Source: Dictyostelium discoideum | Lineage: Eukaryota | Assembly (NCBI GenBank): GCA_000004695.1 | Contig: CM000151.3 | Span: 5,376,001-5,440,000 of the forward strand | Direction of reading: 5' to 3' | Length of the DNA: 64,000 bases | In this document: piece after piece, positions 17,905 to 49,954 of the stretch | Position numbering within the stretch: the stretch's first letter is position 1 | Layout: each line of letters begins with the position of its first letter | Program-made: the position numbers and the translations under genes | The notes under the pieces: generated by a model | Seen by the model: the letters and a program-made list of their open reading frames with translations, nothing else | Told to the model about the DNA's origin: nothing | The model's database searches: none

Positions 17905-19542
17905 TTAATTTAAATTAATAGTTTTTCTAATATCATCAAAACTTGATGAATTTACAATTTCAAATCTTTTATAATTAAATTTTAATAATATTGGTTCTAA
18001 TAATTTTGAAATTTCATTTGATGATAAATAATTTTGAATTTCATTTGAAAAAGATTTTGAATGAGGTGATGATAATTTTGAAACTAGTGGTGGCATTGCT
18101 GAAGGTCCTAAAGTTTTAATTATTTTAATATCATTTTCTAATGAAATTCTATTATTTAATAATTCAGTATCTAAAACTGTTGAATCAATTGAAGCAATTA
18201 ATTTATCATTTACTTGTGAAGATTTAATTGATTCAATTGAATTTAAATGTGAACCTGTAAAAATTGAATTTTTAAAATAATTTTCAATTGATAAAGTTTG
18301 ATGATTGTTTATTAAATGACTATTTAAAATTTGATAACCTGAAAATGAATCTTTACCATTATGAATAAATGTTAAATCTTTTGAAAGTTCATTAATTGTA
18401 CTTTGATTTTTAACAATTAAATTACTGAAATAAATTGGTTTATTTTGATAATGATCTTCAATTCTAACTGGTGAAACCAATGGTGATAATAATTTTGGAC
18501 CTGCATTTACAAATGCTAAACCACACATAAATGCAAAATCAACACCATATTCAACCATTAATTTATGTGGTGGTTCATTAATTAATTCTCCTGCATTTTC
18601 AGATTGATTAATTAATGAATAAATATCAATTAATTTTGTAGAAACTTTTAATTTTTTACCAATTTCATTTACAATCTCTTTAAAGAATTCAAAAGAATTT
18701 GGACTTAGGAAAGATGCAAAGCTCAATTCTTTATATTCTCTTAATGCTCTTAAATTAACTTTACCATCTGGTGTGAATGAATAATACTTTGTTCTTATGA
18801 AATTAATATCTAATTGGTCGTGTTGATAAAGTTGGAAATATTCTGATAAACATTCAGCTGGAATTGAGATTTGAGCATTATGAATTCTAACCATATGATA
18901 ATAAAGTGGTGATAAATATTGATTGGCGTCTCTATGAACAGTATGACGTCTCCATTCATTTACCACTTCAAAATTTTCAATAATTACAATATTTGCATAA
19001 TTATCGTCAATTGTATTTGGAAGATGGGATAAAAGTTCTTGGGATTTTGGTTTTTCTTTTTGAATTGTTACATAACCAATAATTGATGGAAATTCAGGAA
19101 GTATTGAAACCAATGCATCGTCACTTGTAATAATTTCATTTAACTTGGATTTAGCATCAAAACTTTTAGTACCAAAGAATCCTACACAACAATAATTTTT
19201 CATTTCTAATGCTTTTTCATAATTATTGATAATGCATCTTAATTTTTCATTTCCATCTAATTGGACATTAAAATGTGGTCTATCTTTATTTTTTTTGTCA
19301 GATAATGGTTTCATTTTTGAGAGTCTCATAAATTCTACAAAATATGATAACATTAATTTCATTAATCCTTTATCTTCTTTTGTATAATATGGATCTGTCA
19401 ATGGATGTCCTTCAACTTTATCATTATCTGATAATAATAAAACATCTGGTAATTCATATTTTATTGATGTTGGTGTTGTTTCAATTATTTTATTTAAATT
19501 ATTTTTTTTATTATCAGAATAAATATGATAATTTGTTTCCAT
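17905..19542 (-). CDS. Hypothetical protein, 545 aa, single exon.
   Basis: The ORF is continuous from ATG to stop, with coding-like composition. I recognise no domain (METNYHIYSDNKK...NYCCVGFFGTKSFDAKSKLNEIITSDD...). Confidence 0.5.
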   Translation of the reverse strand: METNYHIYSDNKKNNLNKIIETTPTSIKYELPDVLLLSDNDKVEGHPLTDPYYTKEDKGLMKLMLSYFVEFMRLSKMKPLSDKKNKDRPHFNVQLDGNEKLRCIINNYEKALEMKNYCCVGFFGTKSFDAKSKLNEIITSDDALVSILPEFPSIIGYVTIQKEKPKSQELLSHLPNTIDDNYANIVIIENFEVVNEWRRHTVHRDANQYLSPLYYHMVRIHNAQISIPAECLSEYFQLYQHDQLDINFIRTKYYSFTPDGKVNLRALREYKELSFASFLSPNSFEFFKEIVNEIGKKLKVSTKLIDIYSLINQSENAGELINEPPHKLMVEYGVDFAFMCGLAFVNAGPKLLSPLVSPVRIEDHYQNKPIYFSNLIVKNQSTINELSKDLTFIHNGKDSFSGYQILNSHLINNHQTLSIENYFKNSIFTGSHLNSIESIKSSQVNDKLIASIDSTVLDTELLNNRISLENDIKIIKTLGPSAMPPLVSKLSSPHSKSFSNEIQNYLSSNEISKLLEPILLKFNYKRFEIVNSSSFDDIRKTINLN

Positions 19543-37604: not shown

Positions 37605-39816
37605 AAATAAAATAAAATAAAAAAAAAAAAATTATAAAATAAATTAATAAATTAATTTAAAATAATTATAATTATAATTAATAAATAATAATTTATACAA
37701 ATAATAATAATTTTTATTTATTTTTTTTTTTTTTTATTATTATTATTATTTATAATTATAGATGTTTGAAAAGATTTTAATTGCAAATAGAGGTGAAATT
37801 GCATGTAGAGTTATGGAAACATGTAAAAAGATGGGTATTAAAACAGTAGCAATTCATAGTGATGTTGATAAGAATGCTAAACATGTAAATATGGCAGATG
37901 AAGCAATTTGTGTTGGACCAGCACCAACATCAGAATCATATTTGAATATTGATGCAATTGTAGAGGCAATTAAGATGACAGGTGCACAAGCAGTACATCC
38001 AGGTTATGGATTTTTATCAGAGAATTCAAGATTTGTAAAAGAGTTGGAGAATATTGGTGTAACATTCATTGGACCAGGATCATATGCTATGCATGCATTA
38101 GGAGATAAGATCGAATCAAAACGTATTGCCAAAGAGGCAGGTGTTAGTGTTGTACCAGGTTACATTGGAGAAGTCGATGGTATGGATCATGTTATAAAGA
38201 TTGCCAACGAGATTGGTTATCCAGTTATGGTTAAAGCATCAGCAGGTGGTGGTGGTAAAGGTATGAGAGTTTGTAGAAATGATGAGGACGTTAAAATTGG
38301 TTTCCGTCTCTCAAAACAAGAGGCAAAATCTTCATTTGGTGATGATAGAATGTTGATTGAGAAATACATTGAACACGGAAGACACATTGAGATTCAAGTA
38401 CTCTCTGATGGTGAAAATGCACTTTATTTCCCAGAACGTGATTGTTCAATTCAACGTCGTAATCAAAAGGTTATCGAAGAGGCACCATCACCATTCATGG
38501 ATGAAGAGACACGTACTAAAATGGGTAAAGAAGCTGCCGCCCTCTGCAAAGCCGTAGGTTACAAAAGTGCAGGTACCGTAGAGTTTTTGGTTGATCATGA
38601 CAAGAGTTTCTACTTTTTAGAGATGAATACTCGTCTTCAAGTCGAACATCCAATCACTGAGGAAATCACTAAACAAGATCTCGTCGAACATATGATTCGT
38701 ATTGCCTATGGTGAGAAATTAAAGATTAAACAATCTGATATTAAAATTCACGGTTGGGCAATGGAAAGTCGTGTCTATGCCGAGGATCCATATCGTAATT
38801 TCCTTCCATCAATTGGTCGTGTTAAGAAATACATTCGTCCAAGTGGTCCAGGTATTCGTATCGATGGTGGTATCTTTGAAGGCGCTGAAATCTCAACTTA
38901 CTATGATCCACTCATTAGTAAACTCATTACCTATGGTGAGAACAGAAAGAATGTTATCACCAAAATGAAGAGAGCTCTCGATGAATACTACATCAAAGGT
39001 GTCAATCATAATGTCGCCTTCCTTCGTGATGTCATGGAGAATAAGGATTTCGTCGATGGTAATGTCACTACCGATTTCATTCCAAAGGAGTATCCAGAAG
39101 GTTTCCAAGGTTATAAATTCTCTCCAAAACAAATCGAACAACTCTCAATTTGTGCAGTTTTCTTACGTTTTGTTGAACAACACAAAAATTTGACAAACTC
39201 TTCAAATACAAATCGTACCTCTTCCATTTCACCAGATATTCTTTACATTGCCAAGGTTGAAAATGTTCGTCACTCCATTCATTTCTATCCACTCGATAAT
39301 TCTGAAACTGACGCCGCTGCCAATGGTGCCAATGGTGATGATTCCTCAAGATTCATGGTTCAATTCATCGATCAAGAGAAAGATGGTCAAGTCATTAAGG
39401 AATTTGAATTAAATTTAGTCGATGCAACTCCACAATTTATCAAATTAAACATTGGTGGTATCTCTCATCGTTTCCAAATTCACGATAAAACTTCCACATC
39501 CTACACCCTTCAATTCCATGGTTCAAAGATTCCAGTCACCGTTTTATCTCCAGAAGAAGATTTACTCTGCCAATACATGCCAGTTAAAAAAACTGTTGAC
39601 TCTTCAAACTCTTTAATCTCACCAATGCCTGGTACTATCCTCTCTTTGGCCGTTAATGTAGGTGATAAAGTTGTCCTTGGTCAAGAACTTTGTATCGTTG
39701 AAGCAATGAAAATGCAAAATGTTCTCAGAGCTCCAAAAGATTGTGAAATTAAATCAATCAATGTTAAACCTGGTCAAGTCGTTTCTGTTGATGAAGTTTT
39801 AATTGATTTTAAATAA
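37401..39816 (+). CDS. pccA: Propionyl-CoA carboxylase alpha chain, mitochondrial: biotin carboxylase domain plus biotinyl/lipoyl domain. Exons 37401..37490, 37762..39816.
   Basis: Exon 1 MNRLFKVQSVISKPVGWSSIRSFHSSSANY is a mitochondrial presequence, with a donor GT at 37491 and an AG at 37760-37761. Exon 2 begins [36 protein letters not shown]... and aligns throughout to human PCCA ([32 protein letters not shown]...). The ATP-grasp motifs are present (GYPVMVKASAGGGGKGMR, EMNTRLQVEHPITE), and the C-terminal biotinylation motif is EAMKMQN. Confidence 0.9.
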
Positions 39817-45844: not shown

Positions 45845-48350
<2,506 letters not shown>

Positions 48351-48565: not shown

Positions 48566-49954
48566 TTAAAGTTTAGCAGCATTTGGTTTTGAAGATAAGA
48601 ATCTACCGAGAACAAAAGCACCAGCACGAGCACCTTCAGATAAAGCGATAGCACCAGAAATCATCATTTCAATGGTTGGATCTACAGAACCTTTTGGAAG
48701 AGCTTTGAAGGTATTGATAGTTTTGTTATCGAGGACTTCCCAATTTCTGAGGATATTACCTTCTTGAGTTAAATCCATAGCGATGTGAACGTAGAAACCA
48801 GCACTTTCCATCATACTACGATAGGACATGAGAGAACCCATATGTGGAACAGAGTGATGAGCACAAATTGGTTCAATGAATTGAACGATATCTTTTTCAG
48901 TTGGTTTTTCACATTGTAACCATTCAGAACCAGACATACGACCACCTGGTTTTAAAACTCTGTAACATTCTTTGATGAAAGCTTGTTTATCTGGCATATG
49001 ACAAGTGGATTCAAAGAAAGTGACAACGTCAAAGGTGTTATCTGGGTATGGCATTTTCATGGCATCACCATGATCGAATGAGGCACGGTCAGAGACACCG
49101 AGGTCTTTGGCTCTTTGGGTGGCAATACCGACTTGTTTCTTATTGATGTTAAGACCACGGATTTTGCAACCAGTGTATTGACAGATTTCGAGGGTTGGAC
49201 CACCAACACCACAACCTACATCCAATACTAAACTGTCCTTGGTGATACGAGCGGAATCGGCAACAGAGTGTTCTAAACGTTTGACGGCGGTTTCTAATGG
49301 TTCAGTATCGGTTTTGAATGGAGCGAAATGGAAATGATTACCCCAACCACTTTGGTAGGTTTCAGTGACGATATCATAGTAATCACTGACCATGGTGTTG
49401 TAGTTTTCGACACGTTTCTCTTCCTTTAAACGGACACCTTCGAATTTTTCATCCTTGACAACGTCTTCTTGTGGGGCGATCTTAACGATTGAACCAGTTT
49501 CAACGGTTTTCTTGATTGATTCGAGGAAGGCATTCCAGGTGTGGGTCATTTCACGATTACCCATAGTACGAGCAAAACCAACTAAAAGTTTTGGAATTTC
49601 AATATCGGTTTCAATGTTGGCTTCTGCTGATAATGTGCATTTGTTGGCACCAGTTGATACAATGGTGTATTTACCATAGGATGACATGTTACCTCCTGTC
49701 ATGTTTTCCCATTGAACGGTGGTGGCGTTAACTTTGGTGTATTTGGCAATGTGAGTGGCTTTCATTTGAATTGAACCAACTTTACGTTCTTGCATGGTCC
49801 ATTTGTAGGTATTGGCATTAACCTTTACAACACTATCAACAAATGGATAACATTTGGCAACTGTTGGTACATCTAAAAGGAATGCAATAACTTTTTCTGC
49901 TGATTGATTAATTTCAATTGGTTTTGATTGATGATTAGTTTGAATTAATACCAT
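48566..49954 (-). CDS. SAM-dependent methyltransferase of the sterol 24-C-methyltransferase (SMT/ERG6) family, carrying an additional N-terminal domain of about 175 aa.
   Basis: It is a single 462-aa ORF. The C-terminal 280 aa carry SMT hallmarks: YQSGWGNHFHFAP (region I YEYGWGxSFHF), LDVGCGVGGP (SAM motif I), FDVVTFFESTCHMP (FDxVYxIEATCHAP) and YRVLKPGG. The N-terminal approximately 175 aa (VIAFLLDVPTVAKCYPFVDSVVKVNANTYKWTM...) is not part of canonical SMTs. Third codon positions are strongly C-biased, the Dictyostelium high-expression codon usage. Confidence 0.75.
   Translation of the reverse strand: MVLIQTNHQSKPIEINQSAEKVIAFLLDVPTVAKCYPFVDSVVKVNANTYKWTMQERKVGSIQMKATHIAKYTKVNATTVQWENMTGGNMSSYGKYTIVSTGANKCTLSAEANIETDIEIPKLLVGFARTMGNREMTHTWNAFLESIKKTVETGSIVKIAPQEDVVKDEKFEGVRLKEEKRVENYNTMVSDYYDIVTETYQSGWGNHFHFAPFKTDTEPLETAVKRLEHSVADSARITKDSLVLDVGCGVGGPTLEICQYTGCKIRGLNINKKQVGIATQRAKDLGVSDRASFDHGDAMKMPYPDNTFDVVTFFESTCHMPDKQAFIKECYRVLKPGGRMSGSEWLQCEKPTEKDIVQFIEPICAHHSVPHMGSLMSYRSMMESAGFYVHIAMDLTQEGNILRNWEVLDNKTINTFKALPKGSVDPTIEMMISGAIALSEGARAGAFVLGRFLSSKPNAAKL

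Follow-up and report, generated by a model that had tools for sequence, protein, structure and literature searches.

DDB_G0275359 of Dictyostelium discoideum encodes an SRPBCC domain joined to a sterol-methyltransferase-type domain and is a candidate lipid C-methyltransferase gene

Alkylation of the sterol side chain serves as a biomarker in taxonomy and geology, offers a target for drugs in amoebae and other protists, and is at present credited to one enzyme type, the canonical sterol methyltransferase (SMT), represented by ERG6, plant SMT1/SMT2 and Smt1 of Dictyostelium (Q54I98; DDB_G0288907; 354 aa). The motif that defines these enzymes, Region I, reads Y-E-x-G-W-G-x-S-F-H-F. Side-chain methylation of sterols in vitro has been shown for bacterial SMTs from sterol gene clusters (Brown et al. 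2023, PMC10070321), a precedent for gene context predicting sterol methylation. Here we report that DDB_G0275359, positioned in a 64,000 bp stretch of the Dictyostelium discoideum genome (GCA_000004695.1, contig CM000151.3, positions 5,376,001 to 5,440,000 of the forward strand; hereafter the window, meaning the whole stretch analysed), encodes a domain of the SRPBCC superfamily followed by an SMT-type methyltransferase domain. We favour, with a probability of roughly 0.55, that the product is a soluble C-methyltransferase of the SMT type whose substrate is a sterol or triterpenoid, that the SRPBCC module binds and presents the lipid, and that the protein is probably peroxisomal in Amoebozoa.

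The gene corresponds to a minus-strand open reading frame (ORF) of 1389 bases, from ATG to TAA, which according to the ORF list and the sequence encodes 462 aa, identical to D. discoideum AX4 XP_643680.1 (UniProt Q553T0; feature coordinates are given in Table 1). Because the dictyBase span (chr2:5424566-5425954, as given in a published supplement) is likewise 1389 bp, the gene has a single exon. The NCBI name is 'hypothetical protein' while UniProt uses 'SAM-dependent methyltransferase Erg6/SMT-type domain-containing protein' (SAM, S-adenosylmethionine), and several orthologues have been auto-annotated as 'Sterol 24-C-methyltransferase'. Both Q553T0 and Smt1 belong to PANTHER family PTHR44068, the former to subfamily SF6 (PTHR44068:SF6) and the latter to SF1 (PTHR44068:SF1).

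The methyltransferase domain is an SMT homologue end to end, since a profile alignment (hhalign) of the family against 12 canonical SMTs covers residues 177-457, opposite ERG6 residues 59-371, with a probability of 100% and an E-value of 1.8e-55; the last ~40 residues still align with the canonical enzymes, through PKGS...GxF...KP. An initial annotation, made by a model from the sequence alone, had correctly supposed the source to be Dictyostelium and had placed the protein in the SMT family on the basis of three motifs (YxxGWG-HFHF, LDVGCGVGGP and ESTCHMP), and all three are present: YQSGWGNHFHF (residues 200-210), LDVGCGVGGP (244-253) and ESTCHMP (315-321) align with SMT Regions I-III, and canonical SMTs have the same Region IV, YRVLKPGG (331-338). 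Specifically, LDVGCGVGGP is the same as in canonical SMTs, FESTCHMP (314-321) corresponds to IEATCHAP, and Region I reads GWGNHFHF here vs GWGxSFHF in SMTs and DNxHxGYF/W in RebM-like outgroup methyltransferases. Among 19 family members the G-C-G-x-G-G-P-T core is invariant, the remaining positions of LDVGCGVGGP are at least 90% conserved, and the acidic and DAM positions together with the E-x-x-C-H motif show little or no variation. With its SAM motifs and the four SMT regions kept, the domain is predicted to be catalytically intact, and the same invariant positions speak against a domain that does not methylate, i.e. a SAM-binding cyclase or isomerase (SpnF-like) or a lipid sensor or carrier, which we regard as very improbable.

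The four SMT motifs, the Erg6/SMT-type name in UniProt and the automatic annotation of orthologues would also be expected of a plain ERG6/SMT1 orthologue carrying the usual variable SMT extension. We consider this explanation effectively refuted, for a canonical Smt1 is encoded separately in Dictyostelium, the SMT homology does not extend into residues 1-176, which have an independent SRPBCC fold, PF08498 (Sterol_MT_C) is not matched, with a deletion in that region common to our protein and its nearest relatives, and the canonical clade excludes DDB_G0275359 in phylogenetic analysis. In a neighbor-joining (NJ) tree with 500 bootstraps and RebM-like outgroups, canonical SMTs were supported at 99%, bacterial ~290-aa proteins that consist of the methyltransferase domain only (hereafter MT-only) at 93%, the clade of SRPBCC-methyltransferase fusions at 85%, and all three SMT-like clades vs the outgroups at 84%, whereas canonical and fusion sequences grouped together in 1% of the replicates. 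Moreover, Region I is kept in all three clades and missing from the outgroups. Thus the SMT-family assignment is right at the superfamily level, and what has to be given up is membership among canonical ERG6/SMT1/SMT2 proteins: the fusion proteins form their own clade without a detectable Sterol_MT_C domain, and compared with canonical SMTs they carry an extra N-terminal domain and, in Amoebozoa, a C-terminal peroxisomal targeting signal type 1 (PTS1).

The nearest relatives of the methyltransferase domain are the MT-only proteins (e.g. P0025, P0028, P0032, L001, L002, L005, L006 and L093-L110; all uncharacterised), with 41-44% identity and ~250 bits. They have the same catalytic domain length, and together with the fusion clade they share the motifs IEPIC and G[DN]ILRNWE, both missing from canonical SMTs, and a short W..P segment, which is longer in the canonical enzymes. 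They differ from the fusion proteins in having no SRPBCC domain, either in the protein or encoded in their loci, and no PTS1. A fusion/MT-only sister pair in the first NJ tree was abandoned, as bootstrapping backs no order among the three clades; the grouping is therefore based on pairwise identity, shared motifs and the indel, and these sequence features (identity, motifs and short C-terminal segment) favour placing the fusion proteins with the MT-only clade.

The initial annotation had further stated that the first ~175 residues lie beyond the canonical SMT region, are beta-rich and resemble Bet v1-like (SRPBCC) lipid-binding domains, and our data agree on each count. The hhalign homology starts at residue 177, opposite ERG6 residue 59, and because residues 1-176 are outside the SMT-homologous region they are not an ordinary SMT N-terminal extension. 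The AlphaFold2 model of residues 1-175, built with 19 homologues, has a predicted local distance difference test score (pLDDT) of 91.1 and a predicted template modelling score (pTM) of 0.85, and shows a beta-alpha-alpha-beta6-long alpha topology in which, as in the helix-grip fold, an antiparallel beta-sheet surrounds a long C-terminal helix. At the level of sequence profiles the domain likewise falls in the SRPBCC superfamily: in Pfam, residues 11-150 match COXG (PF06240) with 25.1 bits (cut-off 22.2) and Polyketide_cyc2 with 26.3 bits, just under the cut-off of 27.4, and in a phmmer search against PDB sequences the domain matches 3p9v with an E-value of 2.8e-9. Hence neither of the two outcomes that the initial annotation had named as counting against it, an ordinary SMT extension or a region with no detectable fold, applies.

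Proteins named alongside this fold include TTHA0849, MSMEG_0129, ZhuI, WhiE and other polyketide cyclases, CoxG-family proteins, PYR/PYL receptors, StAR, STARD proteins, CERT and Aster. The START, StAR and Aster sterol-transfer domains are larger (about 170-240 aa), are not fused to such enzymes, and their similarity to the N-terminal domain, in structure as well as in sequence, is far below that of the 3p9v group. SRPBCC proteins of the 3p9v (Maqu_3174), CoxG and Polyketide_cyc2 types differ in being stand-alone, single-domain proteins, with ligands that are mostly undescribed. An exhaustive phmmer search with the N-terminal domain alone retrieved, besides the fusion family, a single SRPBCC-only protein of 227 aa and numerous stand-alone bacterial SRPBCC proteins of ~150 aa (21-30% identity), and in this search no fusion of the domain to any other enzyme was found. 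The gene for the nearest stand-alone relative, P0115 (29% identity), belongs to an operon for lipid A biosynthesis with the conserved order LpxB - KdtA (Glycos_transf_N) - LpxK - Trm112p - SRPBCC (L086-L088), and no methyltransferase gene is present in this locus. About half of the matches in the search were giant proteins (700-3500 aa) that were matched 5-28 times by residues ~88-125 only, and these were rejected as compositional false positives, since P0108 shows T/S/G-rich 'GTYTVTVTG.NGCTATATT' repeats. The segment in question (GKYTIVSTGANKCTLSAEANIETDIEIP) draws phmmer E-values down to 6e-37 from P0108 and ~60 others, which are giant bacterial cell-surface proteins with 'GTYTVTVTGSNGCTATATT' repeats, and this artefact could mislead automated annotation.

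Both domains are retained in 19/19 full-length homologues. The hosts are dictyostelids (D. discoideum and close relatives, D. purpureum, Acytostelium with two copies, Tieghemostelium, Heterostelium, Cavenderia and Synstelium), the protosporangiids Ceratiomyxa and Clastostelium, the heterolobosean Pharyngomonas kirbyi (two copies) and the glaucophytes Cyanophora and Cyanoptyche; a few metagenomic sequences also encode the fusion. A 471-aa protein recovered in the exhaustive search (P0125) has both domains and a degenerate SAM-binding loop (VLAILDGGFRTF instead of VLDVGCGVGGPT), and has lost Region I; judged by its sequence, it looks like a pseudo-methyltransferase with a retained SRPBCC domain.

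The full-length model of the D. discoideum protein has a pLDDT of 90.7 and a pTM of 0.79. In the family alignment the linker (residues 154-176) is conserved as VKD..FE..R, with R175 invariant, and its pLDDT increases from 58-66 in the model of the isolated N-terminal domain to 86-90 in the full-length model. This gain suggests a defined domain arrangement in which the linker would be packed on the methyltransferase domain. No transmembrane segment was detected in the protein, the maximum 19-residue hydropathy being 1.29.

To place the methyltransferase in a genomic setting we used loci of at least 10 kb, counted after a metagenome scan, and a threshold of at least 200 bits for the MT-only class (low-scoring 'MTonly-like' labels were discarded as meaningless). 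A triterpene cyclase gene was present in 9/14 MT-only loci and in 24/44 loci of canonical bacterial SMTs, and the numbers increased to 10/14 and 26/44 when either cyclase or squalene epoxidase was counted; for other methyltransferases both numbers were 0/51. As examples, P0025 is found in a cluster with cyclase, squalene epoxidase, cytochrome P450, a Rieske protein, 3beta-hydroxysteroid dehydrogenase and ERG2, P0028 is flanked by squalene epoxidase and oxidosqualene cyclase, and P0032 is near ERG2, ERG4/24 fragments and a cyclase. The SMTs studied by Brown et al. (PMC10070321) are similar in that members of the SMT family are encoded in oxidosqualene cyclase clusters, the cyclase association at canonical loci being close to that of the MT-only clade, and different in that they fall in the canonical clade in our classification and appear to have the C-terminal domain. 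The species-genome scan yielded mostly canonical bacterial SMTs and generic methyltransferases, with only L006 in the MT-only clade; here the methyltransferase gene overlaps the start of a cyclase-like gene, with a DAO-type flavoenzyme alongside. A particular flavin adenine dinucleotide (FAD) oxidoreductase adjoins the methyltransferase in 16/28 MT-only loci, and FAD enzyme (FAD monooxygenase or DAO-type), methyltransferase and cyclase make up a recurrent module in this clade, often with overlapping stop and start codons (e.g. L001 and L005, 8721-10876; L002, 8508-10816; L006, 9926-13858). The MT-only methyltransferase could act before or after cyclisation. Using a hidden Markov model of the N-terminal domain and tblastn, no SRPBCC gene was found in any bacterial methyltransferase locus; because P0115 in turn has no methyltransferase nearby, gene neighbourhood lends no independent support to a functional link between the two domains. 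A 118-residue N-terminal extension in L042 was considered as an SRPBCC domain and rejected, having no Pfam match and no similarity, and probably comes from a false start site further upstream in a GC-rich genome.

We also considered codon usage and expression. The initial annotation had described the third codon positions as overwhelmingly C, which is wrong (T 38.5%, A 29.2%, C 24.9% and G 7.4%); the bias relative to the neighbouring genes holds and is the strongest among the real genes in the window. The fraction of C in third positions (C3) is 0.249, the corresponding value for G+C (GC3) is 0.32 and the C share of pyrimidine-ending codon pairs is 0.49, compared to C3 values of 0.03-0.17 and C shares of at most 0.33 for the other real ORFs; the sole higher C value in the window belongs to the spurious frame of a repeat. 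Codon choices such as GGT (30/31), CCA (18/18), CGT (12/16), ACC (20/36), TAC (10/14) and TTC (13/18) belong to a set reportedly preferred in highly expressed Dictyostelium genes. The high expression deduced from codon usage in the initial annotation is consistent with the quantification of the protein by mass spectrometry (Protein.FCmean -0.56; PMC6830349, Table S7). In the same table the mRNA has log2 fold changes (log2FC) of -5.09, -5.79 and -5.60 at 4, 5 and 6 h of development, smt1 behaves similarly (-4.3, -5.2 and -5.1), and squalene synthase and lathosterol oxidase fall in parallel (PMC6830349). The drop on starvation amounts to about 30-50-fold, and DDB_G0275359 is thus a growth-phase gene.

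Growth-phase expression bears on a second explanation, according to which the enzyme methylates a hydrophobic metabolite other than a sterol, e.g. a polyketide of the differentiation-inducing factor (DIF) or 4-methyl-5-pentylbenzene-1,3-diol (MPBD) type, a prenylquinone, a fatty acyl chain or a small isoprenoid, with the SRPBCC domain as a polyketide-cyclase-like or quinone-binding module. Synthesis of DIF-1 and MPBD is developmental, i.e. the opposite of the timing seen here, where vegetative expression collapses in early development; the expression therefore fits membrane sterol synthesis and fits DIF-type developmental polyketides poorly. Pfam assigns the C-terminal half to generic class I methyltransferase families and CMAS, and the best PDB sequence matches are natural-product methyltransferases (D-glucose O-methyltransferase, MitM, RebM, TleD and SpnF; at most 107 bits), although this comparison cannot favour SMTs because no solved SMT structure is among the matches; a true ERG6 in a large protein database scores 161 bits (35% identity, 66% coverage). 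Membership in the RebM/MitM type is thus not indicated, neither by similarity nor by motif, as the protein has GWGNHFHFAPF in place of H-x-G-Y-W/F. The Pfam matches of the N-terminal domain, COXG and Polyketide_cyc2, and the one MT-only relative adjoining a polyketide synthase (PKS) gene are in line with a non-sterol substrate; the Region I motif GWGxxFHF common to SMTs, the SMT profile homology over the whole domain, and the link of the MT-only clade to triterpene cyclases and squalene epoxidases, with none at generic methyltransferase loci, are not. Taken together we judge a non-sterol substrate unlikely. The earlier suggestion of a lipid-binding domain coupled to a C-methyltransferase is supported, and of the two substrates it had left open, sterol or polyketide, expression favours the former.

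A feature overlooked in the initial annotation is the C-terminal tripeptide -AKL, which conforms to the PTS1 consensus, a C-terminal [SAC][KRH][LM]. The pattern is present in 9/11 amoebozoan orthologues (as -AKL or -SKL), in 0/8 other family members, and in none of the canonical SMT and MT-only sequences checked. In the full-length model the C-terminal tail is of low confidence or disordered, with a pLDDT of 42 for the last block. Farnesyl diphosphate synthase is reported to be peroxisomal in Dictyostelium. Instead of a PTS1 the glaucophyte members carry a C-terminal extension of 40-90 residues; in P0016, P0017 and P0018, which are of this type, it has the conserved sequence RWDPPAxYGxFP... 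and a Lys-rich tail (e.g. KKRKAAAG...AKQAKK), which suggests a different localisation or interaction. The Pharyngomonas copies and related sequences end with -SRF or -PRF.

According to the reading that we favour, the C-terminal domain would use SAM to methylate a sterol or another triterpenoid olefin, and the SRPBCC domain would bind the water-insoluble substrate, or pick it up at a membrane or lipid droplet, and present it to the active site, thereby substituting for the membrane or lipid-droplet association on which canonical SMTs depend. In Amoebozoa the PTS1 (-AKL) would direct the folded protein into the peroxisomal matrix, and the gene is strongly expressed during growth and shut off on starvation together with the sterol-synthesis genes. 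Dictyostelium makes 24-ethyl sterols, and to our knowledge has only one named canonical Smt1. DDB_G0275359 is a candidate for a sterol methylation step that lacks a gene. A more specific proposal, which we put forward as speculative and rather doubtful, is that the fusion clade and its MT-only relatives constitute a third branch of sterol/triterpenoid methyltransferases with a function of its own, in which the Dictyostelium member most plausibly performs the second side-chain methylation, from 24-methylene to 24-ethyl(idene), in peroxisomes, with the START-like domain extracting the sterol and handing it to the catalytic site.

Several observations weigh against the favoured reading. First, DDB_G0275359 has no match to Sterol_MT_C (PF08498) at E ≤ 1, while the canonical sequences P0037-P0054 carry it, and the W..P segment comprises 16 residues vs 29-39 in canonical SMTs, such that 13-23 residues of the C-terminal domain are missing; because of this the substrate-binding lid differs from that of proven SMTs. 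The bacterial enzymes with demonstrated activity appear to be of the canonical type, their phylogeny having been built on the methyltransferase and C-terminal domains (PMC10070321). Second, the branching of the three clades is weakly supported (fusion with MT-only 29-40%, canonical with MT-only 35%), and one MT-only protein (P0023) is encoded near a PKS and a resistance-nodulation-division (RND) pump and not near a cyclase. Third, the PTS1 is missing from the non-amoebozoan fusion members. Finally, co-regulation with sterol genes is weak evidence, because many unrelated growth-phase genes also fall on starvation.

The G+C content of the window is ~20%, as is usual for Dictyostelium, and no sterol or peroxisome theme was found among the neighbours in the window (THADA/Trm732, VPS9, RabGAP, WD40, biotin carboxylase, RNA recognition motif (RRM) protein and DUF726). 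The intergenic region upstream of DDB_G0275359 (50150-50345) has homopolymer A runs of 30-40 nt, typical of Dictyostelium promoters. On the other side, the convergent ORF at 47001-48350 (+) ends 216 bp from the stop codon of the methyltransferase gene; its product, rich in Asn and His, contains long runs of poly-Asn in addition to tandem (D[ST]QRD)n repeats and an RS-like stretch (RSRSHSRGRSRSRSHS), and the repeat gives rise, at 47020-47463, to a spurious second frame in which C3 is very high. The gene at 37762-39816 (+), encoding biotin carboxylase, PCC_BT and biotinyl domains, i.e. the alpha subunit of a propionyl- or methylcrotonyl-CoA carboxylase, has the second strongest codon bias in the window (C3 0.167; CGT 18 vs AGA 11). 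For the 545-aa product of 17905-19542 (-), the C-terminal part matches the bacterial periplasmic phosphonate-binding family PF12974 (9.7e-11), which is unusual in a eukaryote and possibly reflects horizontal acquisition.

Table 1. Coordinates of DDB_G0275359 and its encoded features in the window.
Feature	Position	Strand	Basis
Complete single-exon coding sequence of DDB_G0275359, 462 codons; TAA stop at 48566-48568	48566..49954	-	ORF list, match to XP_643680.1/Q553T0, dictyBase
SRPBCC/START-like helix-grip domain, residues 1-153 (strands 2-118, long C-terminal helix 122-153)	49496..49954	-	
Interdomain linker, residues 154-176	49427..49495	-	Family alignment and pLDDT
SMT-like class I SAM-dependent methyltransferase domain, residues 177-455	48590..49426	-	
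SMT Region I motif YQSGWGNHFHF, residues 200-210	49325..49357	-	Motif alignment
SAM-binding motif LDVGCGVGGP, residues 244-253	49196..49225	-	Family and motif alignments
C-terminal tripeptide -AKL, canonical PTS1, residues 460-462	48569..48577	-	Pattern [SAC][KRH][LM]$

In the literature searched, DDB_G0275359, Q553T0 and XP_643680 were not found in any main text, the gene being named only in the supplement of PMC6830349, and searches on SRPBCC together with sterol methyltransferase and on Dictyostelium peroxisomal sterol enzymes gave nothing relevant. We found no paper on the SRPBCC-SMT architecture, and its domain content is already implicit in database annotation. If this clade is a lineage of sterol/triterpenoid methyltransferases in its own right, there would be a second enzyme type, encoded beside oxidosqualene cyclases in bacteria and fused to an SRPBCC domain in amoebozoans, a heterolobosean and glaucophytes, and a model organism amenable to genetics would provide a concrete gene candidate for an unassigned methylation step. 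The fusion would also be a naturally occurring case of an SRPBCC domain built into an enzyme to deliver its substrate, and might link sterol modification to peroxisomes.

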